This document shows, one piece after another, positions 18,656 to 56,809 of a stretch of DNA of 64,000 nucleotides (positions within the stretch are counted from its first letter, which is position 1; each line of letters opens with the position of its first letter). The position numbers and the translations under genes were made by a program. Location of the stretch: NCBI GenBank assembly GCA_964585475.1, contig CAZPDF010000006.1:8531-72530 (forward strand), written 5' to 3'. The notes under the pieces were generated by a model that was not told where the DNA came from, searched no databases, and saw only the letters and a program-made list of their open reading frames with translations. Source of the stretch: an uncultured Candidatus Saccharibacteria bacterium (GTDB lineage: Bacteria > Patescibacteriota > Minisyncoccia > Sungbacterales > HO2-52-23).

Positions 18656-21600
18656 ATGTACTCGGGCAAATGGAATCCGGAAACGCGAGAAGGCAAGAAA
18701 CGACTCGAGCATCTCCTCGTCATCGTTAAACGATTGACCTATAGAGAGGATCTTAAAGCCGAACTCAAGAAAGAATCAATGTTCGCGGGATTTAGTACGA
18801 ATGTCGTGTTGAACAAACTCAATCGGGAGCAAATGACAAATCCCACCAGCGCATTGAGCAGGGCCTGGGCGGCAATTCCATTGAAGCCGCACGTTGCGAT
18901 CCGGCTTTTCCCCGATGAGAAACGGCGCGAGGCGCTGAAGCAGGCGCTCACCGATCCAGCCAAAACACTTGATGACATTGAGCGTGACTTCCCTGAATAT
19001 AAACTCCTGCTCAAAAACCAGCGTGATTCGATCAACCGATTTTTTGGTATCACTCGGCCCCATTCCGGGTGGACATCCCGGCTCGGCAAAAAGACGCCGA
19101 CGCCGGTATCCGCGAAGGAAGAGCCGACCCACTCTAAAAACTGGTGGATCCGCTTGACTGAAGAGCAAAAACAGGAGTTTTTGGCTGACTACCGGAAAGA
19201 CTATCGCCTTACCGGCAATACCAATGATGACTACTGCGAGAAGTGGACGCGGATCACCGGAGAGCAGGTAAGCGCGGAAAGTCTGAGCAAAGCCGCGCGA
19301 TACTTTGGCGAGACGAGAAACCGCGTGCAGATCGTAGCAGAATATAAGACCATCGCGCAGGTTCTGAAAGCAATGGACGATAGAATCACACAACTTATCC
19401 TAGCAGGCACTCTTGCCGAAGCGGGGCTCGATGTTCTTTTCGAGACAATAAAACAAGAGTTTAGAGAAGATCTCGAAAAGGTTCAGTTCAATCTCACCCA
19501 AGAATATTTCACCAAGAGGACAGACAAACTTGTTTGGACCGAAGGAAAGGCCGGTGCTCTAACCGAGCTTAACGATTTCATCGACAAGGGATTCACGGCG
19601 GAGAAATTCCACGAATACCACCGGCATATTCCGCTTGAGATGATAAAAGCGAAAATTCTCCAACTTACGGGCACGACCAACATTGAAAACCCGCCGCCTT
19701 TCGTGGCGACAGCTTTTGCCCGAGGAATTGGCCGCCTTATCGGCGACATACCAGAGGCCGAAACCGAACCATTCCAACGGGCCATGAAAGAATTCAAGAT
19801 TCCGGAAATTAGCTTTGACCAGCCGCTGGATATTCCTTTCCGAGACATCAAAAACTTCCGAACGGGTGTAATCAACGGCCCGAACCTAGGAATTCTTCAC
19901 GCGCCCCGTATCGAAAATAACACTTTCCGCCAGGCATTGGCCTTTGCGAAGCTAAGAGGATGGGAGCACCTTTTCCTTCATGGCATATTTGATCTTGATA
20001 TGACTAAGGCCGAAGGTCCGGTAAAAGGTATTCGGGCCCTGTATTCGGGCAGAAACACAAACATTGACGTGCTCGATCCCGGTTATCAGGAAGAGGCGCG
20101 CCGCATAATCCGAGCTATCGAAGCCAATGAGTTTACAAATGAAATCCTGTACGAGACGGCCAAAGAGGCGCTAATGAACCTCTTGCGAGGCCTCTGGAAA
20201 GTAATGCTGCATAACAAGAAGCCGGTGTTTCCGGGCAGAATATCCGTAATCCTTGGCCCGAAAGAGTTTGATGCCATCACTGCCGCGGCCCATGCGGAAA
20301 TCCTTTACGCGACGCTTTGCAAGCAGGAAGAACTTAAGCTTGAGAGGGGCGCTGCCGCGAACGCGGTTCGACGCCATCAAAAACAGCTTTCGAAACTTGA
20401 GGGTCGCATCTGGGATTATGAGTTCGAGCTCTCGCAGGGACCAAACCCTCAAGACGAGGAAGCGCTGCGAGCCAAGATTGAGGCGGTCCGGCAGAAGATA
20501 GACGAGACCAAACAAAAAATAGCGAGCCACAAACAAAAGGTTCGCGAACTCAAAAAAATGGAAGCCCGCACGCGGATGACCAACGTCCGCCCCGAGGAGT
20601 GGCAGCGCTTCCACAAGATCGCCTTAACGCTCGTCTCCATCCTCATTGAACGCGCGATCCCGAATTCAAAGGTGATTTCTCTCGGATCTACTTATATCAA
20701 GGTAGGTCCGGAACCCAAAGACAAGATAAAGTTTGTCATTCCCGGCAACCTCAAGATAACCGATGCTAGTGTTTCAAACTACGCCAATACCTATTCTACC
20801 GAGGCGCTATCGATGAAAATGGCAGAAACCATCATCATATGCCCTCCGTATTCGGTCGGATACGCCATGACCGCACGCGAAGTCGATTCAAAAGGAACAC
20901 GCGGGTATGCGTCGCGTATCTACAATGCGCTGACCTGTATCGACGGACCGTTCATACGCGAAAAAACCAAAAATGTCATCCGGGAAAGTCATCCCATCGG
21001 ACAATTGGCGAATCATCCCATGTTCCAAGGCGGTATTCTTGAGATCAACTGCGTGGACGGCATGGTAACTGCAAATCCGGTGACCACCGAGACGCTAGCA
21101 AGTTGCGAGCGGAGAGCTAAGGGACTAATCCATGGCAAAAATGCGCTGGCAGACAAATACATCTGGGTAATGATCGCGACCGACCAGCACTACGGCGGAC
21201 GGGCAAAAGAATTTTTGGAAGATCGGGAGACGGGAAAAAGCTTGGGAATGGCTGAAGCCGTGTTCCACCTCATGCGAAAAGCCGGCTACGGCGACGGCGA
21301 CAAGCTCCCGCCGTTCCACATTTTTACGGTAAACGATGACCCCACGCAAGGCCACCACTTCCCGGCAGAAAAAGAGCCGCATCGGCATGAAATGCAGTAT
21401 CACAGATATGAGAAAGAGCTGAATAAACTGCGTGCGCAGTATAGGACCGAAAAGAACCCGCGTATCAAAGAGGCCTTAATGGAAAAAATCGCCGCGTTCT
21501 CCAAGCGCCAGGTGCGCGTCAGAGGAACCGATTCCTACACGCGCCAGATGCAGGATTTCATCCATAGACACATCAAGGGCAACATTGATATGTTCAGCGG

Positions 21601-22312
21601 AATGCTAAAGCGATCCGAGAAAGCGGGATTGATCCTTAAGCCCGTAAGCGAATTTGAGGATTATCTCGAGATTGCGTTTGACACCTGTGATCTCGGCTTC
21701 ATCAACTTGGGGACCGGAAATCATGGTTTGAGCACCACGGAGGACAATCTTTCCGAAGGCGTAATTTTCGCCGAGATAATGAAACCGTATCTAATGATGC
21801 GTCCCCATTGGCACGATAAACCGGAGCTCTTGGATCGCTATGTAACCGGACCCACTTTTGGCAATAAGTTCATCGCATTCGGAACCGTCAAGGCCCCGGG
21901 CGGGTATGAATACGGGTTTGACCTTAGAAACTCCCCTGCTACCAATACGGTTGACTGGGGCAATACGGTACGAGCCGGTGCCCGGACCGACCTAAGACGA
22001 GCAAACTACGGCGCAAGAATATTCGAAGAGAAACTAACCGTCATAATCACAGGAGATAAACACTTCTTGTCAGCACTCCTCATGGCCTTGCGGCTTCACT
22101 TAATGTCGCCTGCCGGAACTCACACAGACGCCTACGGCGAGCGCGGATTTCCGCCGAATGGCTCCGGCATTGCCCTTCTCGGACTTCCCGCCGAGGGCCC
22201 GGCATCAGGTCCAATCCTTATCCGTTACCTCCTTCTTCACCACCTCCGAGATTACATCGAGAAAAATCCCCGGCAGCTTGACTTTGAAGCGCTTCTCGTG
22301 AATCCTCTGTAA
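18656..22312 (+). CDS. Large (1218 aa) protein with a C-terminal calcineurin-like metallophosphoesterase domain; N-terminal 800 aa unknown with a coiled-coil segment
   Basis: C-terminal motifs ATDQHYGG (D-x-H), GDGD, VNDDPTQGHHF (GNH[DE]-like) and ITGDKHF (GH-x-H-like) in canonical order. Confidence 0.45.
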   Translation: MYSGKWNPETREGKKRLEHLLVIVKRLTYREDLKAELKKESMFAGFSTNVVLNKLNREQMTNPTSALSRAWAAIPLKPHVAIRLFPDEKRREALKQALTDPAKTLDDIERDFPEYKLLLKNQRDSINRFFGITRPHSGWTSRLGKKTPTPVSAKEEPTHSKNWWIRLTEEQKQEFLADYRKDYRLTGNTNDDYCEKWTRITGEQVSAESLSKAARYFGETRNRVQIVAEYKTIAQVLKAMDDRITQLILAGTLAEAGLDVLFETIKQEFREDLEKVQFNLTQEYFTKRTDKLVWTEGKAGALTELNDFIDKGFTAEKFHEYHRHIPLEMIKAKILQLTGTTNIENPPPFVATAFARGIGRLIGDIPEAETEPFQRAMKEFKIPEISFDQPLDIPFRDIKNFRTGVINGPNLGILHAPRIENNTFRQALAFAKLRGWEHLFLHGIFDLDMTKAEGPVKGIRALYSGRNTNIDVLDPGYQEEARRIIRAIEANEFTNEILYETAKEALMNLLRGLWKVMLHNKKPVFPGRISVILGPKEFDAITAAAHAEILYATLCKQEELKLERGAAANAVRRHQKQLSKLEGRIWDYEFELSQGPNPQDEEALRAKIEAVRQKIDETKQKIASHKQKVRELKKMEARTRMTNVRPEEWQRFHKIALTLVSILIERAIPNSKVISLGSTYIKVGPEPKDKIKFVIPGNLKITDASVSNYANTYSTEALSMKMAETIIICPPYSVGYAMTAREVDSKGTRGYASRIYNALTCIDGPFIREKTKNVIRESHPIGQLANHPMFQGGILEINCVDGMVTANPVTTETLASCERRAKGLIHGKNALADKYIWVMIATDQHYGGRAKEFLEDRETGKSLGMAEAVFHLMRKAGYGDGDKLPPFHIFTVNDDPTQGHHFPAEKEPHRHEMQYHRYEKELNKLRAQYRTEKNPRIKEALMEKIAAFSKRQVRVRGTDSYTRQMQDFIHRHIKGNIDMFSGMLKRSEKAGLILKPVSEFEDYLEIAFDTCDLGFINLGTGNHGLSTTEDNLSEGVIFAEIMKPYLMMRPHWHDKPELLDRYVTGPTFGNKFIAFGTVKAPGGYEYGFDLRNSPATNTVDWGNTVRAGARTDLRRANYGARIFEEKLTVIITGDKHFLSALLMALRLHLMSPAGTHTDAYGERGFPPNGSGIALLGLPAEGPASGPILIRYLLLHHLRDYIEKNPRQLDFEALLVNPL

Positions 22313-31231: not shown

Positions 31232-31303
31232 GGGCGACTAGTTCAGTGGTAGAACGTTCGCTTCACATGCGAAAGGTCGTTGGTTCGATCCCAACGTCGC
31301 CCA
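31232..31303 (+). tRNA. tRNA-Val (anticodon CAC)
   Basis: GGGCGAC TAGTTCAGTGGTAGAAC G TTCGC-TTCACAT-GCGAA AGGTC GTTGGTTCGATCCCAAC GTCGCCC A. Confidence 0.8.
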
Positions 31304-31332
31304 AAATGTTTATCCTAATAGTCATTTAATTC

Positions 31333-31779
31333 ATGAAACAAATTCCTAAAAAAGAGATTACAAGAAGCGTTCTTGCGTACCTCGGCAAAAATCGCTTAAT
31401 GACTCTTGGTACCTCAATGAATAATAAACCATGGGCAGCTACAGTTTTTTACGCTTTTGATAAGAAAGCCAATCTTATTTTCTACTCACGCCCTGGTACA
31501 AAACACTGCCGACATATAAAGCAAAATCCTTACGTTTCTATGGTTATCAACCATAACTGGCGAAATACTGATGGTACTATCAAGGGACTTCAGATAACCG
31601 GCCGCGCGTCAAAGGTTTTACAAAGAGATTATCGTCGAATCTATGCGCTTTATAAAAAACGTTTTAAGTGGGCCGACGAATTTGCGCCTGATCATGTCCT
31701 TTATCTTATAAAACCAAAAGAGATCTGGTATATCGATCAGAAGCTATTTGGCCACTTTAATAGGGTACGCGCGATTTAA
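31333..31779 (+). CDS. Pyridoxamine 5′-phosphate oxidase-like FMN-binding split-barrel protein
   Basis: MTLGTSMNNKPWAATVFYAFD...VSMVI pattern typical of the PNPOx-like/general stress protein 26 family. Confidence 0.55.
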   Translation: MKQIPKKEITRSVLAYLGKNRLMTLGTSMNNKPWAATVFYAFDKKANLIFYSRPGTKHCRHIKQNPYVSMVINHNWRNTDGTIKGLQITGRASKVLQRDYRRIYALYKKRFKWADEFAPDHVLYLIKPKEIWYIDQKLFGHFNRVRAI

Positions 31780-31834
31780 GACTTTCTGTCCAATAGAATT
31801 TAAAAGGACATATCGGACAAACCAAGTAATTCTA

Positions 31835-32287
31835 TCAGACTGTTTGACGTGGAACACTTGGTTTAGCTCTATAAATGAGACTATCTAGGTAAGGAAATTT
31901 TTTTAGCCACCAATCAAATTGAGTTCCTTTGTGCCCAAGAAGTTTATATCTACACATCTTCACAATCTTATTTTTTAGAGTGGGAATATCGCGGATTATT
32001 AACATTGCAAAATGTCTTCCTTGGTGGGTATACTCATATACCCAGTTATGAACTACTAAATAGTCTCTAATTGCTTCAATTAGCTCTTTATCCCGCACGT
32101 GCATTTTTAGAACAAAGGATGGAATCTTTTCTCCTGTACGGTAAGTATCTGCACCGAAATGTCCCTCTCCTTCAATCAAACCGAGTATGTAATCATCAGT
32201 TAACCTTTCCCTAATTTCATCCCTTGAGTAGTATGTTTCCTCCATTATTCCATCATAAAACTTGCCTTTATTTCTGCCCCTAGACAT
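31835..32287 (-). CDS. LAGLIDADG-type homing endonuclease-like protein (free-standing)
   Basis: YILGLIEGEGHFGADT motif (LAGLIDADG variant) near the N-terminus; ~150 aa single-motif size. Confidence 0.5.
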   Translation of the reverse strand: MSRGRNKGKFYDGIMEETYYSRDEIRERLTDDYILGLIEGEGHFGADTYRTGEKIPSFVLKMHVRDKELIEAIRDYLVVHNWVYEYTHQGRHFAMLIIRDIPTLKNKIVKMCRYKLLGHKGTQFDWWLKKFPYLDSLIYRAKPSVPRQTV

Positions 32288-32373
32288 ATTTGTTCTACAT
32301 GAAACAGAGTGGATGTTACACTTACTGTTAAATATAACATTTTCACGGACCTATAAAAGGATAGATATCCACC

Positions 32374-32763
32374 ATGCCTTCTCAAAAAAGAAAATTTGGT
32401 GATATTGGGGAGAAATATGCAGAAGAGTTTTTAATCAAAAAAGATTATAGAATTCTGGAAAAGAACTATAGGATCAAAAATTTAGGGGAAATCGATATCG
32501 TTGCAGAAAAAAACGATAAGCTAATATTCTTTGAGGTCAAAACTAGAGATATAAAACATGAAACAGCGTTCCCAATCGGCTTTAGTATTAACGAGCGGAA
32601 GAGAAGAAATTTAGCACGGATATGTCAGCTTTATCTCACAGAGAAGCGCATTCCGTTTCAACGTAAATGGCAGGTAGACGCCATTTTCTTACTGGTTGAT
32701 TCTACTAATGGATCTAGCTCTATTGAGCACCTTGAGAATATTCTTTGGGAGCGATATTATTGA
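32374..32763 (+). CDS. YraN family (UPF0102) endonuclease
   Basis: GDIGEKYAEEFLIKKDYRILEKNYR...GEIDIVAEKNDKLIFFEVKTR, the PD-(D/E)xK core of UPF0102. Confidence 0.75.
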   Translation: MPSQKRKFGDIGEKYAEEFLIKKDYRILEKNYRIKNLGEIDIVAEKNDKLIFFEVKTRDIKHETAFPIGFSINERKRRNLARICQLYLTEKRIPFQRKWQVDAIFLLVDSTNGSSSIEHLENILWERYY

Positions 32764-33072
32764 CCCCGCACCTTTTGTGCGCTAGTTAATGGATATGCAC
32801 TACGTCTATATTCTTAAAAGTATATCGGCATCCATTCTGTACATAGGCCGTACCGACAATCTTGAAAGAAGAATGAGAGAGCATAACTCTGGGGGTACTC
32901 GCACCACGAGAAAATATATACCTTGGGTTATGGTATACTGCGAAGGCTATTTTGATATTGAAGACGCCAGGTCAAGGGAAAGAAGTTTGAAGCAGTTCGG
33001 AAGGGTGTATTCTCAACTTAAACGCCGTATTGCAAAAAGCCTTCTTAGCGCACAAAAGGTGCGGGGTTGAAG
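32759..33072 (+). mobile_element. GIY-YIG nuclease cassette bounded by 24-bp terminal inverted repeats (TTGACCCCGCACCTTTTGTGCGCT)
   Basis: Left IR 32759-32784 and right IR 33047-33072 are near-perfect reverse complements. The same IRs flank a gene-less element at 34611-34766. Confidence 0.7.
32789..33070 (+). CDS. GIY-YIG domain nuclease (93 aa)
   Basis: HYVYILKS...LYIGRTDNLERRMREHN...R...E GIY-YIG catalytic motifs. Confidence 0.8.
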   Translation: MDMHYVYILKSISASILYIGRTDNLERRMREHNSGGTRTTRKYIPWVMVYCEGYFDIEDARSRERSLKQFGRVYSQLKRRIAKSLLSAQKVRG

Positions 33073-33101
33073 TGTTCGACGTTTTACGTTTCATGGTGTT
33101 T

Positions 33102-33178
33102 CACGGGCCGTAGTATACCGGTCCCTAGGCCCTTTGGGCCGGGATCCCGGCGGCGAAGCCGCCTAGGGATAGTACGCC
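33102..33178 (+). pseudogene. Degenerate tRNA-Pro-related sequence (partial duplication with an internal palindromic insertion)
   Basis: CGGGCCGTAGTATACCGG matches the 5′ part of the downstream tRNA-Pro. It is followed by TCCCTAGG...CCTAGGGA inverted repeats enclosing T-loop and anticodon-loop-like fragments. Confidence 0.3.
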
Positions 33179-33204
33179 TGTTTCTTGCCAGCTTAAATTT
33201 TTAC

Positions 33205-33275
33205 CGGGGAGTAGTATACCGGCAGTACACATGCTTTGGGAGCATGAAGACCGGGTTCGATTCCCGGCTCCCCGA
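33205..33275 (+). tRNA. tRNA-Pro (anticodon TGG)
   Basis: CGGGGAG TA GTAT-ACCGGCA-GTAC A CATGC-TTTGGGA-GCATG AAGA CCGGGTTCGATTCCCGG CTCCCCG A. Confidence 0.7.
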
Positions 33276-34610: not shown

Positions 34611-34766
34611 CTTGACCCCGCACCTTTTGTGTACTGTATTATACCCATCACCTCATCAGTGTGCCGCATTCTGCGATTAACTCGGTAAAGAAGCAGTGCC
34701 GAATAGGTAGTAAAAATTTGGTGCTCGCGAGGTGGTCTGGTACACAAAAGGTGCGGGGTTGACAAC
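34611..34766. mobile_element. MITE-like non-autonomous derivative of the GIY-YIG element (same 24-bp terminal inverted repeats, no ORF)
   Basis: CTTGACCCCGCACCTTTTGTGTAC at 34611-34634 and GTACACAAAAGGTGCGGGGTTGACAA at 34740-34765. Confidence 0.65.
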
Positions 34767-34937
34767 CCACGGGCTTTTTGCTACTGTTGAGAAAACTTCT
34801 GGAAAGAGAAGGGCAACCGAGCACTCAATGGGTTGAGTGCTCGGCCAGTCTACTCCTAGGAAGAGTGTTTTTTAGCTCTTTCAAATAGTAGATTGGTAGC
34901 CCTTTTTTCTTTCCTCAAAATCACGGAGGAGAGTGGC

Positions 34938-36740
34938 ATGGCAGAGAAAGGTAAAGATGACTCTAGGGGACTCTCCAAGTTTCTTCCGATGACCGACGCG
35001 ACCTATCGGCGTCGTCTTACCGAGTACGAAGTTCAGGTTCAGGACCTTCAGACTTATATCAGATCTCTTGAAGTCGAAACCGTACACCTGCGAAAAAAGC
35101 TCGAAGAAGCTCCTAAGGAGTTTCTGGTGCTTGAGAATAAACTTCGCGAAGCGAACCGGCAACTAATACAGGCCTTTAACCAGAACGAGAAGCTGGTCAA
35201 CGCCCTCTACGAGTCCCGCGAGCAGATCCAGTCGCTCAAAGAAGAAGTGGACAAGCTTTGCGCTCCGCCTTCCACCTACGGCGTGTATCTGTCAGTCAAC
35301 GAGGACGGAACCGTAAACATTCTTGCTCAAGGACGAAAGGTAAAAGTAAACCTTCATCCTTCGATCAAGCCGGAGTCGCTGAAGCCCGGGCAGGAGCTCA
35401 TCCTGAACGAGGGCCTGAACGTCGTCGAGGCGGCGGGCTACGAGATCCAGGGCGACGTCGTCGTGCTGAAGGAGGTGCTGGACTCCGAGCGGGCGGTGGT
35501 CACCCTGCGGGCGGACGAGGACAAGGTGGGGATCATCGCCGACCCGCTGCGACCGCTGAAGCTGAAGGTCGGCGACCACATCCTGATGGACTCCAAGTCC
35601 GGCTACCTGCTCGAGAAGCTCCCCAAGAGCGAGGTCGAGGACCTGACGCTCGAAGAGGTGCCCGACATCTCCTACGAAGACATCGGCGGGCTCACGACCC
35701 AGATCGAGGCGATCCGCGACGCCGTGGAGCTCCCCTACCTCTACGCCGACTACTACAGGGAGCACAAGCTCACCCCGCCCAAGGGCGTCCTGCTCTACGG
35801 GCCGCCCGGCTGCGGCAAGACCATGATCGCCAAGGCGGTGGCCAACAATCTGGCGGAGAAGATCTCCGAGCAGCGCGGCGAGAAGATCAAGGGATACTTC
35901 CTGAACATCAAGGGGCCGGAGCTGCTGAACAAGTATGTGGGCGAGACCGAACGGAAGATCCGCGAGATTTTCATGAAGGCCAAGGAGAAGGCCGCCGAGG
36001 ACGTGCCGGTCATCGTGTTCTTCGACGAGATGGACGCCCTCTTCCGCACGCGGGGCTCCGGCATCTCCTCCGACGTGGAGACGACCATCGTGCCCCAGCT
36101 CCTGGCGGAGATCGACGGCGTCGAGGGTCTGAAGAACGTCATCGTGATCGGGGCCTCCAACCGGCAGGACTTGATTGATCCTGCAATTCTTCGTCCCGGG
36201 CGTCTGGATATTAAGATCAAGATTTTGCGGCCGGATAAAGATGCGGCAGTCGATATCTTCGACAAATACCTCACGATCGAAGTCCCTCTTCATGACTCGG
36301 AGATGCGGCAGGACGGCGGTGAGAGAGTTGATACTCTCAAGCGCCTCATCGCCTCGACCGTTGAGGAGATGTATGCGCTTACTGAAGAAAACAGGTTCCT
36401 CGAGGTAACGTATGCCAACGGCGATAAGGAAGTTCTTTACTTCAAGGATTTCTCCTCCGGCGCCATGATTGAATCAATCGTGCGTCGTGCCAAGAAACTC
36501 GCGCTCAAGCGCTACATCCAGACGAGCCAGAAGGGCATCGTGCTTGACGATCTACTGGCTGCAGTTCGCGAAGAATTCAAGGAGAACGAAGATCTTCCGA
36601 ATACGACCAACCCGGACGACTGGGCTAAGATCGCCGGCAAGAAGGGCGAGCGGATTGTATACGTGAAGCCCTTGATGGGAGAACCGAAAGACAAGCAGCG
36701 GACCGTGGAACAGGTGATCACTACCGGACAGTACCTGTAG
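34938..36740 (+). CDS. Proteasome-associated AAA+ ATPase ARC/Mpa homolog (GGAGGAG RBS; the ORF extends upstream to a TTG at 34893)
   Basis: N-terminal coiled coil, inter-domain OB region, Walker A GPPGCGKT, Walker [11 protein letters not shown], and C-terminal ...TTGQYL (the GQYL proteasome-docking motif of Mpa/ARC). Confidence 0.85.
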
Positions 36741-36759
36741 TCCTTCTGACAACTACTCC

Positions 36760-36827
36760 GTCACCCTGAACAAAGTGAAGGGTCTCAAAACAACCAAGAG
36801 ATCCTTCGGCTAGCGCCTCAGGATGAC
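36760..36827. repeat. Palindromic intergenic element, family A, copy 4 (degenerate)
   Basis: GTCACCCTGAACAAAGTGAAGGGTCTC ... GAGATCCTTCGGCTAGCGCCTCAGGATGAC. Confidence 0.6.
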
Positions 36828-36957
36828 CACCATAAAAAATTACAAGTTGCTCCGGCTCTGCCCGGAGTTTTTTATTTGCTAAATAGGCAAGCTTGCGCTA
36901 CGCTTGCTCCAAGAATATGTTCTTCACAAATTCAATAATTTGAAGGGAGGTGGGAAT

Positions 36958-38988
36958 ATGGCGATTCCGAAGCTTATCGGAACCGAAACTGAAGCTACGC
37001 TTTCGGTAAAAGACCGGCGCTCATCCGCCGAGTTTCAGGGAAATGTGTATGAGGTGGTGAGTCTTCTTTGGACATTCGCAAGTAACAATCGGGTAAGCCC
37101 GATTGGCGGCAGGAGGGAGTTTGAGAACATTGCCGCGTTGGAGAATGAGATTAAGAATGTCTATGGATACACCGCCAGGCGTCTGGTGACGATTGAGGAA
37201 ATCAAAGAGGCCATCCGGCGTCTCGGCTCAAAAGTTTTCTTCAGTCCCATTGAGGGGCTAGTGCTAGAAAACGGGGCCCGAGCATATATGGAGCCGGCTG
37301 GGGCGGATCCGGAATGGAGCACTCCGGTGTGTCTCCTGCCCAGTGAAGTTCTCATGCAGGAGCGGATGCTTGAATGCGCTTTTGCCAAATCCGCCAGACA
37401 ACTTTCGGATGACAAACAGGAGATTCGTCTTTACAAGAACGCGAGCGACGGGCAAGGCCATTCGCATGGACTTCATTCCTCGTTTTTCATCTCTCGCGAA
37501 TTCAGAGAGCGGCTTTTTTTGCGATCGCGCGATGCATGGAGTCAAGATCGTTCCATAAACTACTGGGGTCGCACCATGCAGGACTTGATATCTTTTGATG
37601 TCTTAATGTGGCTGATAAAAGGGGCGGGCAAGGTGGGCAGTGAAGATGTGTGGGCTCCGGCAACTTATCAAATTTCCCAGCGGTCCGATCATATCCGCGG
37701 AGGATTGGTCGGCGGAAATACCACCGGAGACCGACCTCTTATCAATAGCCGCGACGAGGCCTTGTCCGATTTCGAGCGTTTTTCGCGGCTTCATGATATT
37801 CATAACGACGGCAATCGCTCGCTGACTGCTATAAGTTTGAAACTCGGCGTGAAACAAGTATTCCTTTCCATGCTTGAGGACGATATGTGTTTTCTTGACT
37901 GGCATCTGGCCGAGCCGATCGTGGCCCTGATACAAATTTCCCGAGATCTTTCGCTGTCAAGACCCGTCAAGGTGTATGTGAGAAGTGAGAAACGAACTGA
38001 TGAGCGTCTGCCCGAAGATCTTCTTTGGGATATCGCCGGGAAAATGGAGCAATACGCCAAAGTAACCCCGCTTCATACGGAGCACCTGAATCTTATCGAA
38101 GAGTTTAAACAGGTGATCTCGCTCCTTAGAAAAAAATCTCCTAATTTAAGCAAGATTCTCGACTGGGCGATTAAGAGAAAATATATTCGCGCGAAAATGA
38201 AGAAGTGGGGTTTAAACCCCGATAATCGGAAACACTGGGCTGATCCCAGAGTGCGGCAGGTGGATATTAAGTATGGCGACCTAACTAATGAAACCAAGGG
38301 CTGGGAATCTATTGCTGAATATTGCGAAGTTAAGGATGCGGAGAAATATTTTGCCGTGAATATTCCCGATATCTTAACTCCACCGACCAGCACTGCTCAT
38401 TTCCTGCGCGGGTTTCTCGTGCACCATCCCCATCTTAGGCAGTGGGTTGAGTTTAAGGATTGGCATAGGTTCGCCGTAGCCATCCCCGGCCGTTCGCGAT
38501 GGATTATCTCGATTCCTGACCCAAGATTGTTTCATCAGGATCATCTTTTCTCACTGCGTCAGGGTCTGGGAATGCTGGATACTCCGGAGCAAGCCGAAAT
38601 CTTTTTTGAAAGAATCGCGAGTCAGGCCAGAAAAACAACTCCGCCGAACTTCTGCGCGCCGATTATCATAACTCCTGGCGAGCAAAAAGCGCTACCGCCT
38701 GCTCGTCCAACCGAAGTGCCGGTCAAAAAAACAGCAGAATCATGCTTACAGCTTGAATTCCGCCTCTACCATTTGGAAACGGCAGCGGATCCTTTGCTCT
38801 TTCGCTTGGTCCCTCAAGCGTGCGAAGAGCGGCCTCGAGAAATGCCGCACGAGCCGGAGGATCTCTATGAGCGATCACTGGGGATTCTAGAGGAAGTCCA
38901 TCCGGTTGAGGAAAAGATGGGCATTGACGACCCGAAGCCCTGTGGTATGCTACCTTCAGTACTTGAGAGCGAGGAGTATCATGGCTGA
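36958..38988 (+). CDS. Pup ligase/deamidase-family protein, long form (Dop-like by position; ~677 aa)
   Basis: N-terminal IGTETE (the GIETE[FY]G motif of PafA/Dop carboxylate-amine ligase fold); INSRDEALSDFERFSRLHDI region homologous to PafA/Dop [28 protein letters not shown] RBS sits before the ATG at 36958. The stop overlaps the Pup start codon. Confidence 0.75.
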   Translation: MAIPKLIGTETEATLSVKDRRSSAEFQGNVYEVVSLLWTFASNNRVSPIGGRREFENIAALENEIKNVYGYTARRLVTIEEIKEAIRRLGSKVFFSPIEGLVLENGARAYMEPAGADPEWSTPVCLLPSEVLMQERMLECAFAKSARQLSDDKQEIRLYKNASDGQGHSHGLHSSFFISREFRERLFLRSRDAWSQDRSINYWGRTMQDLISFDVLMWLIKGAGKVGSEDVWAPATYQISQRSDHIRGGLVGGNTTGDRPLINSRDEALSDFERFSRLHDIHNDGNRSLTAISLKLGVKQVFLSMLEDDMCFLDWHLAEPIVALIQISRDLSLSRPVKVYVRSEKRTDERLPEDLLWDIAGKMEQYAKVTPLHTEHLNLIEEFKQVISLLRKKSPNLSKILDWAIKRKYIRAKMKKWGLNPDNRKHWADPRVRQVDIKYGDLTNETKGWESIAEYCEVKDAEKYFAVNIPDILTPPTSTAHFLRGFLVHHPHLRQWVEFKDWHRFAVAIPGRSRWIISIPDPRLFHQDHLFSLRQGLGMLDTPEQAEIFFERIASQARKTTPPNFCAPIIITPGEQKALPPARPTEVPVKKTAESCLQLEFRLYHLETAADPLLFRLVPQACEERPREMPHEPEDLYERSLGILEEVHPVEEKMGIDDPKPCGMLPSVLESEEYHG

Positions 38989-39181
38989 AGTAGAGAAGCG
39001 AAAGACTGGGCATCCCAAGGGTACGCCCGAGGGCGAAGGTGGATCTGCAAACCCCAATGTTGCCAAGAAAGGGAAAAAGCTAAAGGAAGACATGGATAAA
39101 CTTCTGGACGAGATTGACGGTATTCTTGAAGAGAACGCCGAGGAGTTTGTAAAAAGCTATGTCCAGCGCGGAGGAGAATAG
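38981..39181 (+). CDS. pup: Prokaryotic ubiquitin-like protein Pup (66 aa, C-terminal GGE)
   Basis: MAEVEKRKTGHPKG...DKLLDEIDGILEENAEEFVKSYVQRGGE. Close match to the Pup C-terminal Mpa-binding helix (LDEID.VLEENAE.FV..YVQKGGQ); ends in GGE. Confidence 0.85.
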   Translation: MAEVEKRKTGHPKGTPEGEGGSANPNVAKKGKKLKEDMDKLLDEIDGILEENAEEFVKSYVQRGGE

Positions 39182-39624: not shown

Positions 39625-41175
39625 ATGCGGTCCTTGGTGGATCTTGGGCGAATCCGCGGCATAGAAGTTGAGCATCAAGCCCTCGTTACCATAAACGGCA
39701 AGACGCAGCCGGAATTTTTCATGGCGCCGGAACGGCAAAATGTTTTCTTTGAGAAACTTCTTCCTCCGGAGCTTACGTCTTCTTGGCTGACCCCGATGGT
39801 AAATTGGCTGTTCCTTGCTAACGGCGCCAAAATAGGAATTGATAGCGGTTGGCATCCGGAATATGCAACGCAAGAGGTAGATTGCTCTCTGGTCGCGCTT
39901 TCATGCGAAAAAGCAGGCGAGAATATCATGGCGGGAATAGCCAAGCGAGCGAATGAATACTGGAAGGAATATGGGATAACGGTGCGTTTCTTCAAAAATA
40001 ATTTGGATGCGTCAGGCCATGCCGATCACTCCTGCGGCATGCATGAGAGCTACATGTTTTTACGCGATGAGGATAAGCTCCGCATGGCTTATGTAGTTGA
40101 GTTGCTCTGGCCGCATCTTGTTTCGCGCAGCTTCTATACCGGAAATGGCTGGGTGGATAAAGAACTTTCATTTCATATCTCGCAGCGCGCCAAGGCCATT
40201 GAAGCATTTTTAACCGGAGCTACAACAAGCAAGCGCCCAATAGTCAACACCCGCGATGAGCCGCATGCCGATGCCGAAAAGTACCGCCGGATACATATTA
40301 TAGTCGGCGATTCTCTTATGGCTGATACGGCAATTTATTTGAGATCCGGAACTACCGCCTTGATTCTGGATATGATCGAGGAGGGCTTCCTTACAGAATG
40401 CCCCTTCCGCTGCGAGAACGATGAGAGAAAAGTGAAAATTCTGCATGATTTTTCCCAGGACATTACCCTGCGCAAGCCGGTCAAGTTTGATAGCGGTAAC
40501 TACACGATGGTTGATGTTCAGGAATGGTATTTTGAGCGGGCACAGGAATACTGCGAGAAAACCGGGCGCATGTCGGGAGAGCGAGAAGACGTACTTCGCC
40601 GTTGGGGAGATAGGATAACGTATGCGCGAAGCGACGATCCGGTCGGCGTTCTCTCTTCGTGTGTGGATTGGGCCGCCAAGAAGTGCCTCATCGAAGAAGA
40701 CATGAAGCGGTATGGCTACGGGTTTAATACCCCGCCGGATTCCGAAATTACGGTTTTGAAGAGGGATCCCAAAACCGGGAAGAGAAAAGAGGTACGCTCT
40801 CGGGTGTTTGATCATCTGAAAGCGCTGGATCTTAAGTTTTTGGAGCTTGGAGCGCAGGGCTACATGCAGAAACTTATTGAAACCGGTTTTATAGAGCGCC
40901 TGGCAACCGACGAGATGATAAGAGCCGTTGAGTATGGGCCCGTGCCGGATCTTCGCTCTTGCGCCAGGGCCGATGCGTGGCAATGGTATGTGGCTGAAGC
41001 TCAAAGGCGCGGCCGGGTGCTGACCGAAGCCGCAGACTGGATGTATTTTGCGGCCAAAGACGGGGACGAGAGGATAGAAAGATTCGGGAAAATGAAAGAC
41101 CCCTATGAAAGCCGCCTTAAGTTATTGTCGGCGCCGGAGGACACGGATTCTCAAGGGCCAACGGAAGCGCCATAG
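39625..41175 (+). CDS. Pup-protein ligase PafA-like (Pup ligase/deamidase family)
   Basis: [10 protein letters not shown] and [27 protein letters not shown] are near-identical to mycobacterial PafA/Dop blocks. N-terminal GIEVEH. GGAGGTG RBS. Confidence 0.85.
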   Translation: [516 protein letters not shown]

Positions 41176-43206: not shown

Positions 43207-45771
43207 TTATTCAAAGTGTATTTCTCTCTCCATTTTTTCCAGCCGTTCTTTGAGTAAGGGATAAAGCCTAAGATCTGGGCTTTTTTGGATAAGTTCGATC
43301 GCCTCTCGTCTTACCTCGCGCACCAGCTTTACGTCCGTGACGGCCTCGATCACCGCATCCGGAACCCCCCATTGCCTTTGTCCGAAAAGGTCCCCCGGGC
43401 CTCGTATTTCAAGGTCTTTTTCCGCAAGTTCAAACCCGTTTTTTGCTTCAACCACCGCGCGAAGGCGGCGAGTTACCATGCCGTCCTCGCTCGGGAAAAG
43501 AAAACAGTACGACTGGTCGGCACCCCTCCCCACTCTTCCGCGGAATTGATGCAGAGTCGCAAGGCCGAATCTTTCTGCGCCCTCGATCATCATTATGGTG
43601 GCGTTCGGATTATCAATGCCTACTTCCACCACCGAAGTTGATACGAGAATTTGGATTTCTTCGTTTTTAAACTTTTTCATTACCGCTTCTTTCTCCTTGG
43701 ATTTTAATTTTCCGTGTAGCATCCCCACACTTAAATCTCTGAATATCTCGTCTTTCAGTTTTTTATATTCCTCTTTCACGGCTTTCACCTCGGCAAGCAG
43801 TAGCTTTGGTTGCGTCGTACCTGTCGTTTGTTGCTTGCCCACTCCGCTCTCGCTTGAGCGAGGCGAGTCGTTTGTCGCTAACTCTATTCGCGGACAAATG
43901 ACAAATGCCTGTCTTCCTCTCCCCACCTCCTCCCTAATAAATTGATACGCCTCGCCCCGTCTAGTTGGTTCTACAATTTTCGTAATGATTTCTTTTCTGG
44001 ATTTTGGCATCTCATCAAGGATGGAAAGGTCAAGGTCGCCGTAGACGGTAAGCGCCAAGGTGCGGGGAATCGGAGTCGCGCTCATGCTCAAAAAATGAGG
44101 CATGAGCGCCGCGGACTGACGCGGACTTGATTCCTCAAGCGCGGACCTACGCTGACTACGCGCTGTATCATATACAATTCTTTTTATCTCAGCTCCTTGA
44201 GGACCGAAGTTAACCAGTAGGGCTACTTTATATTCTGAACCCTTTACATAAGTCCATAGTTGCTTTTTTTCTGTAGTGCCTATAAAAGGAAGTGCTTTGA
44301 GTTCTATAATTACTTTGTCGTCAACAATAAAGTCCGGTTGATATATTCCAACTTTTTTACCTCCAAAAGTAACAGTTAGTGGTTTGCCTTCAACAAAATT
44401 TAAGCCGGCCGTCCTGAAAGCTTCTGCCAACGCCTTTTGATACACCGACTCTTTATGCCCGAATCCTATTTGATCTGTAACTTTAAAAACGCACCCCCGG
44501 ATTTTATAGGTGACATCCTCGTATAAAAGTTTTCCCGATTCCGCGTTAGTCCGCGTTATATTCTCTGTCCGCGCCTGTCCGCGAACCAGCGCCATGCGTT
44601 GGTTGACTCCAAATCGATGTTGTTCGTCCACCACGACAAGTCCGAGATCTGGAATTTTAAACCTTTCCTGTATTAGCGCATGCGTGCCAACGATAATATC
44701 GGGGTCGTGCGCAATCTTTTTTTCCGCGCCGAGTGCTAAACCCACTTTTATTCCGAAAGTCGCAAGCAATTTTTCAATCGTTTCATAGTGCTGCCTCGCC
44801 AAGATCTCGGTTGGCGCCATGAAGGCTACCCTGTATCCGGCTTTTATGGCCAGAAGTGAGGCGGCTGCTGCAACCACTGTTTTGCCGGACCCCACATCTC
44901 CTTCCAGGAGCCGGTTCATGGGTTTGGGTTTTGAAATATCCTGCGCGATTTCCCAGATGGAACGGCGTTGGGCGCTGGTGAGTTCGTAAGGCAGCGAGCG
45001 CACGAACTCTTTGAGGAGGGGAACCATCGCAGGAATTTCGGGCGCCTGATACTGCTTGAGTGTCAGGCGCGCCTTTAGAGCCCTCAGCTGTATGAGAAGG
45101 AGTGTCTCGAAATTGAAACGGCGGCGCGCTCGCTCCGCCTCCGATTTGTTTTTGGGGAAATGAATTGCGCCGAGCGCGTCTTGAAGGTTGGGCAGGAGAT
45201 ATTTATGACGCGTTTCCGAAGGCAAAGGGTCGGAGAGTTTCGACTTTAGCTCAATAAACGATTTTATAAGGAAGCGGAGCCAGCGTGAAGAAATTCCAGA
45301 AGTTTCCGGATAAATTGCGACGAGCCCCCCTGTGTGTATGTTGGTTACTGGTAACTGGTTACTGGCTATTTTCTCATATGCCGGATTCTGCAGATAAAGT
45401 CCTCCGGTTCCCGTAGCTGTTTTTCCGGACATACTCACCGTATCCCCCGCCTTTAAATTCCGCAGTAAAAACGGCTGGTTAAACCAAAGTGCTTTTATTG
45501 CTCCGGTTCCATCCTCAATTTTGGCCTCGGTAAGAAACATACGCTTTCGCAGGGTTCTGCGGCCGGAAATAGTTTTTATTTTCCCCATGATTGTTACGGT
45601 CTCGCCAAGCAAGAGATCGCGTATGGCCTTTCTATTTGAAAAATCTTCGTAGCGCGTGGGGAAATGGAAGAGCAAATCCCGAATGGTTTTTATGCCAAGG
45701 CGTTTCAGGGGCGGTACGATCCGCCGGCTTATTTTGGGGACGTTTTCTATCGGGGTACTCAAGGAAATCAT
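43207..45771 (-). CDS. recG: ATP-dependent DNA helicase RecG with an in-frame ~165-aa GxxExxY-domain insertion between helicase motifs II and III (the ORF extends to 45870; start at 45771 has a GGAGGG RBS)
   Basis: Wedge domain, Walker A GDVGSGKT, motif II VVDEQHRFGV, motif III SATPIPRT, motif VI QLHQFRGRVGRG. The insertion contains GFGHKESVYQKALAEAF...YQPDFIVDDKVIIELKAL, matching the GxxExxY protein family signature. Confidence 0.85.
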   Translation of the reverse strand: MISLSTPIENVPKISRRIVPPLKRLGIKTIRDLLFHFPTRYEDFSNRKAIRDLLLGETVTIMGKIKTISGRRTLRKRMFLTEAKIEDGTGAIKALWFNQPFLLRNLKAGDTVSMSGKTATGTGGLYLQNPAYEKIASNQLPVTNIHTGGLVAIYPETSGISSRWLRFLIKSFIELKSKLSDPLPSETRHKYLLPNLQDALGAIHFPKNKSEAERARRRFNFETLLLIQLRALKARLTLKQYQAPEIPAMVPLLKEFVRSLPYELTSAQRRSIWEIAQDISKPKPMNRLLEGDVGSGKTVVAAAASLLAIKAGYRVAFMAPTEILARQHYETIEKLLATFGIKVGLALGAEKKIAHDPDIIVGTHALIQERFKIPDLGLVVVDEQHRFGVNQRMALVRGQARTENITRTNAESGKLLYEDVTYKIRGCVFKVTDQIGFGHKESVYQKALAEAFRTAGLNFVEGKPLTVTFGGKKVGIYQPDFIVDDKVIIELKALPFIGTTEKKQLWTYVKGSEYKVALLVNFGPQGAEIKRIVYDTARSQRRSALEESSPRQSAALMPHFLSMSATPIPRTLALTVYGDLDLSILDEMPKSRKEIITKIVEPTRRGEAYQFIREEVGRGRQAFVICPRIELATNDSPRSSESGVGKQQTTGTTQPKLLLAEVKAVKEEYKKLKDEIFRDLSVGMLHGKLKSKEKEAVMKKFKNEEIQILVSTSVVEVGIDNPNATIMMIEGAERFGLATLHQFRGRVGRGADQSYCFLFPSEDGMVTRRLRAVVEAKNGFELAEKDLEIRGPGDLFGQRQWGVPDAVIEAVTDVKLVREVRREAIELIQKSPDLRLYPLLKERLEKMEREIHFE

Positions 45772-46944: not shown

Positions 46945-47865
46945 TTAATGAATTGTACTGTCGAGAAGTATGCCGTCCGCCCAATAGAATCCAGTTTCGC
47001 CGGAAGGGAGAATGTCGTACGTATAACCTTTTTGATAAGATACCATCTCGGCAGTTATTACACGGCCTCCATCCATAAGGTCTCCAACAGAAAGATCGCC
47101 CATAATTCGTCCGTCTCCGATTGGATGCCCGGATGAAGCGAAAATTTCTCGTCCGTCAGCCAGAAGCAGATGGATTACCTCATGAGTGGATGGTACGGGA
47201 GTTTTGGCGGTTTCAACAACGAAGGCAGAAATACGTTCACCCAAATTATTGACCGTCCAAATCGCCATCCCTTTTTGCAAATGTTCTACAGGAATAGCAC
47301 CCGAGGGCGTATCAATCAATGTATTTTCTGTAAGACATATCGGGCAGGGCCGGTTAAAATCGGTTTTCTTTATAAACACGGCAGTATTTCCTTCGATGCG
47401 AGTGAGTGTCAGCGTTATAGTACAGCCGTTACTTACGATTTCTCCGATACGTAAAGTCAAGGGATGCCCTTGGCCAGTCACTACAGGATATTCCCAAAAA
47501 TTCAGGCCCGTGACGCGGTCAGTATAAATTTTCTCCAACAAGAAAGAACTCTCTCGTTGCCCTTCCCGCAGAGATATTTGTTCTCCATCCGGTTTCGGTA
47601 AAGGCGCAGGACCCGGCCTTGGAACGGGTATAGGAGCCGGGGCCGGAGTGGGAGGCGAGGTTGCGGGACATTCCGCAAATTCACAATTGGGGCCGGTACG
47701 GCTGACATAACTTCCGTCGGGGCACTGCCGTGTTTCTTGAGTGCAGGCCTTCGGAAGCGGCGGAGATTTTTTGAACAAAATTAAATATCCTGCTGCTCCG
47801 GCAAATATAACAATAAGGATGACAACCAGTATATTTGTAAATCCTTTTTGCTGATCCTCGTTCAT
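46945..47865 (-). CDS. Secreted/membrane-anchored protein with Pro-rich linker and C-terminal Hint (bacterial intein-like, BIL) domain
   Basis: N-terminal TM; PTPAPAPIPVPRPGPAPLP linker; CLTENTLIDTPSGAIPVEHL (Hint block A: C-L-x-x-D/N-T); C-terminus ...DSTIH. Confidence 0.5.
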   Translation of the reverse strand: MNEDQQKGFTNILVVILIVIFAGAAGYLILFKKSPPLPKACTQETRQCPDGSYVSRTGPNCEFAECPATSPPTPAPAPIPVPRPGPAPLPKPDGEQISLREGQRESSFLLEKIYTDRVTGLNFWEYPVVTGQGHPLTLRIGEIVSNGCTITLTLTRIEGNTAVFIKKTDFNRPCPICLTENTLIDTPSGAIPVEHLQKGMAIWTVNNLGERISAFVVETAKTPVPSTHEVIHLLLADGREIFASSGHPIGDGRIMGDLSVGDLMDGGRVITAEMVSYQKGYTYDILPSGETGFYWADGILLDSTIH

Positions 47866-52030: not shown

Positions 52031-52084
52031 TTGTGTGGATAACTTAACTTGTATACATTCTATTTATTTTCTATAATAGTATAT

Positions 52085-53950
52085 ATGCTCACAAAAAAGC
52101 AAACACAAGTCCTAGATTTCATAAAGGCTTATATGGCAAAGCATAGCTATGCCCCCTCCCTCGATGAGATCAAGAAGAAGTTTAAGCTCGCCTCTGTATC
52201 TACTGCTCATTACTACATAAGCAAATTACAAGATGCTGGTTTTTTGAATAAAGAACACAATCAACCTCGTGCTGTTTCGACCGTTAAAGCAAAACAGACT
52301 GTTGAAGTTCCCATTTTAGGAGCAATCGCGGCAGGTGAGCCTATTGAGGCGATAGAAATTCCTGACGAAACAATAACGATCACAAGAGATGAAATTGGAA
52401 AGCAGGGCAAGCACTATGCTTTGCGTGTGCAAGGTAGCAGTATGATTGATGAGGGTATTTTTGATGGCGATATTGTCGTTATACGCAAACAAGAAGTAGC
52501 AGAAAATGGTCAAACTGTTGTGGCGGTCATTGATGATAACGAGGCGACACTCAAAAAACTGTATCGTGAAAATGGAAAGTTTAGACTTCAACCGGCAAAT
52601 CCAACACTATCTCCAATTTATCGTGATGAAGTGGAAGTGAGAGGTGTAGTTGTAAAGATTATTCGAAACCTCGAATCACAACTGGATCAAGGACAATCAA
52701 GGGATGAGAAGTATGTCCGTAAAATAGATTATTCATGGGACTACAGAGGAGAAAAAACAAAGTCGTATACGCACGGAATACATACCTATCCGGCGATGTT
52801 CATTCCACAAGTCGGACGAAGATTGTTAGAAACTTATAGTAAAGAGGGCGATACAATTTGTGATATTTTCTGTGGCTCTGGTTCAGCCTTAGTCGAAAGT
52901 AGGTTGATAGGGAGAAATGCTTACGGCATTGATCTCAATCCTTTGGCCATTTTTCTTGCGAAAGCAAAAACAACTCCAATCAATCCACAAAAACTAACCA
53001 AAGAATACATTATCCTGCTCAGCAGAGTAGAAAAAATAAAGGACAATGAGATAAAAAGACCTGATTTTAAGAATATTGATTTTTGGTTTAAGGACAAGGT
53101 AATAGTTAAACTTGCGAAACTAAAGAAAGCTATACAAGAAATAAAAGACGAGACCATTCAGAATTTCTTGATGGTTGCTTTTAGTGAGACAGTTCGGTAT
53201 TCCTCAAATACAAAGACTGGAGAGTTTAAGTTGGTGCGTGTTAAAGGAGAAAAACTGGAAAAGCATGATCCTGATATCTTGGGCATATTTCGAAAAAATG
53301 CAGAGAAAAATATCGCAGGTATGACGGATTTTTATAAAGATGCAAAAAATGATTCATGGACAAAAATAATCTATGGTGATTCATCAAAAGATAACGGAAT
53401 AAAAGCAAATTCTATTGATTGCATCATCACCTCACCGCCATATGGCGATAGTCGCACTACAGTAGCTTACGGACAGTTTTCTAGACTCTCGGCGCAGTGG
53501 ATTGATGTGTTTGAAGATCCAAATGACGCCTCTGGGGTAGATAACGATCTTCTCGGGGGTAGAGCTACTAAAAATTTAACCCATACACTTTCATCAGCTT
53601 ATCTTAAGGAATCATTAGACAAAATTGTGAAGCAAGACGAAGCAAGAGCAAAAGATGTATTAAGTTTTAATCTTGGATTGAATGAATGTCTGAAACAAGC
53701 TCACAGAATACTTAAACCAAGAAAGTATTTTTGTCTTGTTGTCGGAAATAGATTAGTCAAACAAGTACGAATTCCCACCGACTTTATTATTGCTGAATTA
53801 GCAGAAAAGATAGGTTTTACTTGTGAAGATATAGCCGTTCGAAATATCCCCGGCAAAAGAATGCCAATCAAAAATTCTCCAACGAATATTGTGGGTGCTT
53901 TAGAGGAAACAATGAACAAGGAAAGTATTGTTGTGCTAAGAAAGAATTAG
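52085..53950 (+). CDS. LexA-like repressor (wHTH plus S24 peptidase) fused to an N4-cytosine/N6-adenine DNA methyltransferase (the ORF extends upstream to 52049)
   Basis: N-terminal MLTKKQTQVLDFIKAYMAKHSYAPSLDEIKKKF (LexA DNA-binding domain) and VQGSSMIDEGIFDGDIVVIRKQ...TVVAVIDDNEATLKKL (S24 Ser/Lys dyad). C-terminal MTase motif I DIFCGSGS and motif IV IITSPPYGD. Confidence 0.7.
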   Translation: MLTKKQTQVLDFIKAYMAKHSYAPSLDEIKKKFKLASVSTAHYYISKLQDAGFLNKEHNQPRAVSTVKAKQTVEVPILGAIAAGEPIEAIEIPDETITITRDEIGKQGKHYALRVQGSSMIDEGIFDGDIVVIRKQEVAENGQTVVAVIDDNEATLKKLYRENGKFRLQPANPTLSPIYRDEVEVRGVVVKIIRNLESQLDQGQSRDEKYVRKIDYSWDYRGEKTKSYTHGIHTYPAMFIPQVGRRLLETYSKEGDTICDIFCGSGSALVESRLIGRNAYGIDLNPLAIFLAKAKTTPINPQKLTKEYIILLSRVEKIKDNEIKRPDFKNIDFWFKDKVIVKLAKLKKAIQEIKDETIQNFLMVAFSETVRYSSNTKTGEFKLVRVKGEKLEKHDPDILGIFRKNAEKNIAGMTDFYKDAKNDSWTKIIYGDSSKDNGIKANSIDCIITSPPYGDSRTTVAYGQFSRLSAQWIDVFEDPNDASGVDNDLLGGRATKNLTHTLSSAYLKESLDKIVKQDEARAKDVLSFNLGLNECLKQAHRILKPRKYFCLVVGNRLVKQVRIPTDFIIAELAEKIGFTCEDIAVRNIPGKRMPIKNSPTNIVGALEETMNKESIVVLRKN

Positions 53951-56764: not shown

Positions 56765-56809
56765 ACGATAAATTCGAAATCCTAATCTCTAAATTCTAGA
56801 CAAATCTTA

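Follow-up and report, generated by a model that had tools for sequence, protein, structure and literature searches.

An ARC gene in a Sungbacterial pupylation locus carries a sharply bounded tract nearly identical to Rokubacterial DNA

Results

A pupylation locus in a groundwater contig

The window analyzed here is a 64-kb stretch of DNA that forms an exact piece of contig k139_434167 (79.6 kb) of the European Nucleotide Archive (ENA) assembly ERZ27284378, and it contains a gene for ARC, the proteasome-associated AAA+ ATPase, within a pupylation locus that also encodes Pup and Dop-like and PafA-like proteins. The sample is run SRR8863434 of BioProject PRJNA512237, from groundwater in Greene County, Ohio (PMC11549363), and an identical sequence is present in a second assembly, the k=31, unitig-based Logan contig SRR8863434_272602 (L082). 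The best named relatives of the window's GyrA (5934–8396) come from metagenome-assembled genomes (MAGs) of Candidatus Sungbacteria, at 69–81% identity, with other Parcubacteria next, and on sequence affinity we assign the host of the window to Candidatus Sungbacteria within the Candidate Phyla Radiation (CPR; Patescibacteria), living in Ohio groundwater.

The ARC coding sequence (CDS; 34938..36740, plus strand) encodes a protein of 600 amino acids (P0001) and was identified by TIGR03689, Pfam, and homology. It scores 745.1 bits against TIGR03689 (pup_AAA), above the equivalog cutoff of 504.75, and Pfam resolves OB-N at residues 113–173, OB-C at 174–229, and AAA at 284–429, that is, tandem OB domains and one AAA+ module. 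The translation contains the Walker A motif GPPGCGKT and the Walker B motif DEMD (in FFDEMD) and has the C terminus VITTGQYL; a C-terminal GQYL is the proteasome-docking motif known from Mpa. Exact-protein look-ups with the alternative starts TTG (615 amino acids) and ATG (601 amino acids) gave no match, the recorded product being the 600-residue P0001. No second copy or remnant of ARC was found within the 64-kb window.

A high-GC tract inside the ARC gene

Measured in 200-nucleotide windows, the guanine-plus-cytosine (GC) content rises from 0.45–0.48 to 0.60–0.665 between ~35300 and ~36200 and then falls to 0.51–0.53; in 400-nucleotide windows, this is the only stretch above 58% GC across the 64 kb. 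The best-scoring segment for GC content at third codon positions (GC3) is 35361..36173, a stretch of 271 codons, of which 262 have G or C and 9 have A or T at the third position. The GC content of this tract is 64.5%, compared with a mean of 47.2% (SD 3.8, maximum 54%) in 813-nucleotide windows elsewhere (z = 4.6). Its GC3 is 0.93–1.00 (97% overall) against 0.5–0.7 (about 61%) in the remainder of the ARC CDS, while the contents at the first and second codon positions (GC1 and GC2) are nearly constant across the boundaries, and the signal lies almost purely in third codon positions. The transitions at the ends of the tract are one codon sharp, and the reading frame stays open across both. These profiles bear out the first-pass annotation of the window, which had described a sharply bounded, in-frame tract of high GC inside the ARC gene. 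Its figure of ~68% GC was slightly high, and the ~48% given for the ends of the gene was roughly right, as the CDS flanks have 49.6% (5′) and 52.4% (3′). It had also confined the tract to the AAA+ core, which the domain map contradicts: the tract covers amino acids 142–412 of 600, beginning in the middle of OB-N and taking in its second half, OB-C, the linker, and the AAA domain up to sensor-1, and it ends before the PGRLD arginine-finger region, with neither end at a domain border.

The two long off-frame open reading frames (ORFs) reported earlier over the tract (35258–36178, plus strand; 35292–36293, minus strand) are present as described, and a further one lies at 35795–36274 (minus strand). 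The CDS around them is overwhelmingly supported by homology, and we read these ORFs as by-products of GC3-rich coding DNA. Codon choice within the tract is mixed (GCC/GCG, GTC/GTG, CTG/CTC); for this reason, and for the base-for-base match to a natural genome described below, a synthetic origin or a recoding with one codon per residue was rejected.

Near-identity of the tract to a Rokubacterial ARC

We scanned species-representative genomes with ARC and considered the best 80 loci, which were mostly titled Rokubacteria or Methylomirabilota, had a GC content of 60–70%, and shared 81–94% amino acid identity with the whole ARC. Compared with JBBTEL010000229.1 (L001), from a Rokubacteria/Methylomirabilota MAG with 67% GC (isolate H43-bin120_1), the whole ARC is 94% identical in amino acids and 89% in nucleotides over 34967–36739. 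When 30–42 kb was used as the query, nucleotide similarity to the Rokubacterial loci was limited to 34967–36739 and stopped at the ends of the CDS. The alignment of the gene (1773 nucleotides) to L001, L002, L003, and L035 contains no gaps. The nearest donors that turned up are in assemblies other than that of the window, namely GCA_038042325.1, ERZ27254860, and ERZ27254842.

Within the gene, stepped nucleotide identity to L001 is 96–100% from ~35370 to 36140 and 68–93% in the rest. Only 6 mismatches fall in the 807 nucleotides of 35364–36170 (99.3% identity), in comparison with 186 in the 966 nucleotides outside (P = 1.5e-44, Fisher test), and the change in divergence is sharp to within one codon at either end. 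The putative recent import thus delimited by its near-identity to L001 (35364..36170, plus strand) corresponds to the GC3-defined segment 35361–36173. It differs from L001 by a synonymous divergence (dS) of 0.036 and a nonsynonymous divergence (dN) of 0.002, with three third-position changes from GC to AT and one from AT to GC; its GC3 is 0.967, against 0.944 in the donor (L001, flank-equivalent codons), and its tetranucleotide frequencies correlate with those of L001 at r = 0.87 and with those of the host at r = 0.015. Rare A/T third positions specific to L001 recur in the tract at 35552, 35894, and 35936. Over this segment the window is closer to L001 than L001 is to its own nearest relatives (98.4% and 97.1% identity), a neighbor-joining tree places the tract beside L001 and L088 at a distance of 0.004, and the encoded protein segment is 99.6% identical to a CSP1-6-like Rokubacterial cluster. 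Given the 99.3% identity and the shared L001-specific A/T third positions, the tract is best explained as a very recent copy from a close relative of Rokubacterium L001, and its high GC content, GC3 near 1.0, and long off-frame ORFs would simply be unadapted donor composition.

The earlier proposal that foreign high-GC DNA was placed in frame by homologous replacement gains support from this contrast between 99.3% identity to a Rokubacterial MAG of 67% GC in the tract and 70–88% in its flanks. The actinobacterium that had been suggested as a possible donor does not fit: an actinobacterial source was rejected because the best 80 loci and the named top ARC proteins belong to Rokubacteria/Methylomirabilota or to MAGs binned elsewhere that carry the same type of gene, and the donor appears instead to be a Rokubacterium (Methylomirabilota) of the CSP1-6-like clade. 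The same comparison bears on the idea that a local compositional process (GC-biased gene conversion, for instance, or selection at the codon or mRNA level) raised GC3 in situ with no transfer at all. Such a process would suit the position of the tract in the most conserved part of the protein and the slight change of GC1 and GC2 at its boundaries, but it cannot yield 99.3% nucleotide identity, rare A/T third positions included, to one Rokubacterial MAG, nor boundaries that are one codon sharp, and we consider that it can practically be dismissed.

Two further observations concern the ARC genes compared here. At three clustered sites within 35557–35654 (35557, 35651, and 35654) the tract matches L003 and not L001, which suggests that Rokubacterial donors exchange ARC segments among themselves. 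The second-best ARC match, P0002, was considered as a possible low-GC relative and rejected, as it lies on a contig of 63% GC and has a duplicated OB region. The locus L083:170-2245 (WNFE01067510.1) encodes a 691-residue ARC homologue on a 63%-GC contig in which the OB-N/OB-C pair is duplicated, either through a real tandem duplication or as an assembly artifact.

A probable older Rokubacterial layer in the flanks

The flanks of the tract had been taken for native sequence, a view that the comparison does not sustain. Across the CDS they retain 70–88% nucleotide identity to L001-type sequence. The 5′ part (34968..35177, plus strand) is 78% identical to L001, with a proportion of synonymous differences (pS) of 0.80, which is saturated, a dN of 0.05, and 33 third-position changes from GC to AT against 2 from AT to GC. 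The stretch between the two donor-identical segments (35234..35363, plus strand; the shorter segment is described below) has a dS of about 2 and a dN of 0.02, with 21 GC-to-AT changes, 1 AT-to-GC, and 0 others; over 35309–35363, up to the left junction at 35360/35364, it mismatches L001 at almost every third base, always toward A/T. Beyond the right junction at 36170/36171, the 3′ part (36171..36740, plus strand) is 70–85% identical in nucleotides and 87–88% in amino acids to the L001 clade. Taken as a whole, the N-terminal flank differs from L001 by a dS of 1.74 and a dN of 0.034, with 54 GC-to-AT and 3 AT-to-GC changes at third positions, and the C-terminal flank by a dS of 1.18 and a dN of 0.083, with 59 and 5, which makes 113 GC-to-AT changes against 8 in the opposite direction for both flanks together.

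At the protein level, the best matches of the flanks are again in the CSP1-6-like Rokubacterial cluster (91–93.5% identity for the N-terminal and 86–88% for the C-terminal part). In neighbor-joining trees of flanks and tract, rooted with the ARC of a host-type locus (L085, see below), the flanks nest inside Rokubacteria as a long-branch sister (distance 0.10–0.11) of L001, L002, L003, L035, L088, and L089. Relative synonymous codon usage (RSCU) correlates with that of the host at 0.56 in the flanks and 0.24 in the tract; the flanks prefer CTT, GGA, and GAA, and their GC3 of 0.61 lies between the host's 0.50 and the donor's 0.94. From phylogeny and composition we infer that the flanks are an older Rokubacterial copy of the gene that has adapted to host composition under strong purifying selection. 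Separate BLAST searches with tract and flanks, which had been proposed as a check, return the same lineage for all segments; the first-pass annotation had held that outcome to speak against a mosaic. These segments of one best-hit lineage are nevertheless more than 30-fold apart in synonymous divergence, so that the mosaic in ARC appears to be one of different times and not of different lineages.

A second donor-identical patch lies 130 nucleotides upstream of the main tract (35178..35233, plus strand), where 56 nucleotides are identical to L001 and L002. Here 18 consecutive codons match at the third position (P = 5e-5, permutation within the N-terminal flank); in the 3′ flank, 12 codons match in succession at 36690–36727, which is not significant (P = 0.06). 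In natural transformation, heteroduplex repair can restore patches of the recipient and leave interrupted imports. The recent import was either discontinuous in this manner or consisted of two recent events.

A probably xenologous ARC among host-type neighbors

Downstream of ARC, all on the plus strand, are genes for a Dop-like protein (36958–38988; 676 amino acids, Pfam Pup_ligase), for Pup (38981–39181; 66 amino acids, Pfam Pup, ending in GGE), and for a PafA-like protein (39625–41175; 516 amino acids, Pfam Pup_ligase). Their relationships are unlike those of ARC. Identity to the Rokubacterial genes in syntenic position is 30% for Dop and 41% for PafA, and whereas ARC exceeds its own NCBIfam equivalog cutoff, the other two are far from reaching theirs (185 against 492 for the Dop-like and 250 against 551 for the PafA-like protein). 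Among 1.84 billion cluster representatives, only two relatives of the Dop-like protein come near 50% identity, and a scan of Joint Genome Institute (JGI) metagenomes for relatives of the host Dop gave no match. Searched by tblastn, the fetched ranges of the Rokubacterial loci yielded no homologue of the window's Pup. In those loci prcB and prcA stand directly downstream of Dop; the window locus differs in that tblastn with the Rokubacterial subunits found no prcA or prcB (20S proteasome) within the 64 kb.

A locus of comparable type, which holds one of the two Dop relatives just mentioned, was found on the Logan contig SRR22388256_237493 (L085, 45% GC). It carries a host-type Dop that is 48% identical to that of the window, and its ARC is 60% identical to the window ARC and 61% to Rokubacterial ARC, as would be expected if the ARC of such a locus had been inherited vertically. 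Since the window ARC is 94% identical to Rokubacteria while Dop and PafA are 30% and 41% identical, and since the ARC of L085 stands at 60%, the whole gene, flanks and tract alike, appears to be a Rokubacterial xenolog inside a host-type pupylation locus. The ARC of L085 (L085:83-2218) is a protein of 711 amino acids; compared with the window ARC and with Rokubacterial ARC, it has ~135 additional residues inserted between its AAA module and its C-terminal part. A PafA-like gene follows it.

The window ARC resembles the Mpa/ARC proteins of Actinobacteria, Nitrospirae, and, as found here, Rokubacteria in its match to TIGR03689, its OB-N/OB-C/AAA architecture, its Walker A and B motifs, the terminal GQYL, and its neighbors Dop, Pup, and PafA. 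It differs from them in belonging to a CPR genome and in its neighbors, a Dop and a PafA that are both very divergent and a Pup with the C terminus GGE. Our literature search found no paper linking pupylation with Patescibacteria. The hybrid protein is presumably functional, given its uninterrupted ORF and its full set of ARC motifs.

Continuity of the assembly

The first-pass annotation had named a chimeric contig as the alternative to a mosaic gene. The genome would then have a uniformly low-GC Sungbacterial ARC, and the contig would have been routed at shared k-mers through the core of a co-occurring Rokubacterial gene. Groundwater communities hold both groups, and exact stretches of 56 and 38 nucleotides outside the tract are common to the ARC genes and could connect de Bruijn graphs when k is small; the tract has no host-specific mutations, and all evidence comes from one run. 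However, a chimera needs two in-frame switch points with a return to the same genome, which is otherwise improbable, as well as the loss both of the host's own 0.8-kb core path and of the Rokubacterium's own flanks. Contig k139_434167 of ERZ27284378, from a MEGAHIT-style, multi-k assembly, and the Logan contig are 100% identical over 34730–37460, a range that includes both junctions and the 56-nucleotide patch, and the Logan contig, built at k=31, passes through both junctions unbranched; going by assembler behavior, two genomes present together should have caused branching and breakage there. The length of the patch itself is below the final k, 139. Furthermore, host-type mismatches occur at every third base up to 35363 and again from 36171, and because they reach both junctions, any shared k-mer would have to lie inside donor-identical DNA, which already concedes a mosaic. 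Finally, the left (1–34800) and right (36900–64000) sides of the contig correlate in tetranucleotide frequencies at r = 0.965, as high as controls within either side, and this single signature implies that the sides flanking ARC do not come from different genomes. The unbroken Logan contig and the correlation across the contig thus disfavor a chimera at the level of assembly, and we judge it improbable.

Other features of the window

The GyrA of the window has no intein, and several of the Sungbacterial GyrA homologues in our search have one. A protein of 305 amino acids encoded at 46945–47865 (minus strand) contains a Hint_2 (intein-like) domain. The RecG helicase gene at 43207–45771 (minus strand) has a PD-(D/E)XK_3 nuclease domain inserted between DEAD and Helicase_C (residues 418–531), and the 633-residue ORF at 52049–53950 (plus strand) combines LexA DNA-binding, peptidase S24, and N6/N4 DNA-methylase domains, either as an unusual fusion or as two genes read as one. 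Between tRNA-Val and tRNA-Pro, a low-GC (35–43%) cluster of small ORFs at 31232–33275 includes a weak LAGLIDADG match, UPF0102, and GIY-YIG and is possibly a small island of mobile or homing-endonuclease type. The 1218-residue ORF at 18656–22312 (plus strand) has no Pfam match, and neither do the ORFs at 5–1366, 16419–17633, and 59536–62454.

Discussion

What the ARC gene shows directly are its sequence relationships, its boundaries, and its composition, and from them we infer two replacement events and a mechanism. In the first event, the ARC of the Sungbacterial pupylation locus would have been replaced in situ, long ago, by the ARC of a Rokubacterium (Methylomirabilota) of the CSP1-6-like clade. 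The AT-biased host would afterwards have driven nearly all free synonymous sites toward its own codon usage, while purifying selection held the protein about 90% unchanged. In the second, very recent event, DNA from a close relative of H43-bin120_1 would have recombined with the resident gene, to which it was 75–88% identical, overwriting codons 142–412 (35364–36170) and the 56-nucleotide patch (35178–35233), leaving 130 nucleotides of resident sequence between them, and keeping frame and length. The second import would have been possible only through homology brought in by the earlier acquisition, and DNA of one donor lineage thus seems to have entered ARC at least twice. We consider this history, an old xenologous replacement followed by a very recent import of the core through homologous recombination, to be probable.

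The likely route leads from uptake of environmental or host DNA to RecA-type homologous recombination and patchy repair of the heteroduplex. Type IV pili and ComEC belong to the gene repertoire of CPR bacteria. In the window, a type IV pilus cluster with PilC/T2SSF, an N-methyl pilin-like protein, and PilM (55520–63592) offers a possible path of DNA uptake. Competence and recombination genes have been reported in CPR bacteria, as has horizontal gene transfer (HGT) into aquifer Patescibacteria with one event from Methylomirabilota (PMC12455944).

Several points weigh against this history. RecA and ComEC were not seen within the 64-kb window, and RecA-type recombination is normally very inefficient at 20–25% divergence. 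An unconverted resident allele of ARC, which could show what the tract replaced, was not found, and L085 is the only host-type relative with an ARC that we found. The allele is carried by a single sequencing run, and ARC is alone in its cluster; three records hold the exact protein, two of which are the same contig. Two scans of JGI metagenomes, the one for relatives of the host Dop and one for an exact 28-mer from the host-type flank adjoining the left junction, gave no match, and no independent sample was found. The two assemblies probably share the same reads. Lastly, all six differences between tract and L001 are ordinary Rokubacterial variants. The view that they are host-side mutations from GC to AT was rejected on this ground, and it follows that the tract itself bears no mark of residence in a Sungbacterial genome.

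The divergence between incoming and resident DNA would be less of an obstacle if the donor copy had already been inside the cell. In such an intragenomic gene conversion, a second, newly acquired and complete Rokubacterial ARC, on the chromosome or a mobile element, would have converted the core of the resident gene; conversion between paralogs yields the same patchy, in-frame mosaic, and it eases the difficulty of recombining incoming single-stranded DNA with a target that is 20–25% divergent. Nevertheless, neither a second ARC nor a fragment of one was found in the 64-kb window, and look-ups in the sample gave no other contig with the ARC protein. We regard this route as highly unlikely and retain the direct import of Rokubacterial DNA into an older Rokubacterial xenolog as the favored history.

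By analogy, the ARC mosaic would be an event of the kind seen in mosaic pbp, penA, and tet genes, combined with compositional adaptation after transfer. Mosaic pbp2x, pbp2b, and penA of Streptococcus and Neisseria and the tet(O/M/O) genes likewise have sharp, in-frame blocks of contrasting divergence, with donor blocks broken by short recipient stretches, and point to a route of the same kind through transformation and recombination. In those genes the partners are congeners of 5–20% divergence under strong antibiotic selection, whereas the partners in ARC belong to different phyla and no selective agent is evident; moreover, in ARC the homology exists only through an earlier transfer of the same gene. 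The flanks follow the amelioration model of Lawrence and Ochman, being parts of a foreign gene in a native locus with a conserved protein and shifted third positions (GC3 of 0.61 against 0.50 in the host). Unlike in plain amelioration, adapted and unadapted layers from one donor clade stand side by side (dS above 1.2 against 0.036). Among HGT events into groundwater Patescibacteria, PMC12455944 describes similar cross-phylum transfers, including from Methylomirabilota, and proposes competence and pili as the route; transfers are counted there by donor phylum, and a term search of that source met neither sub-genic homologous replacement nor repeated import into one and the same gene. What is unusual in the ARC mosaic is the distance between phyla, the CPR recipient, the two dated layers from one donor clade, and the Sungbacterial pupylation setting.

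HGT into CPR bacteria is usually scored gene by gene. For ARC, even a taxonomy of best hits segment by segment would have wrongly dismissed the mosaic, which synonymous divergence exposes. Provided that the mosaic is real, it puts on record a CPR genome that has a pupylation locus, and it indicates that an earlier xenologous replacement can open a door of homology to further recombination with the same donor group. It would also provide a concrete, testable pairing of Sungbacteria and Rokubacteria. Our search of the literature on a link between these two groups found nothing useful. A tentative and rather doubtful extension is that the twice-imported ARC DNA reflects a lasting association, in which Rokubacteria would be the hosts on which the Sungbacterial lineage lives and whose DNA it scavenges by means of its pili and competence apparatus. 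To our knowledge, hardly any environmental CPR bacterium has a known host; if such an association is true, near-identical sub-genic tracts could mark the unknown hosts of CPR bacteria in groundwater.

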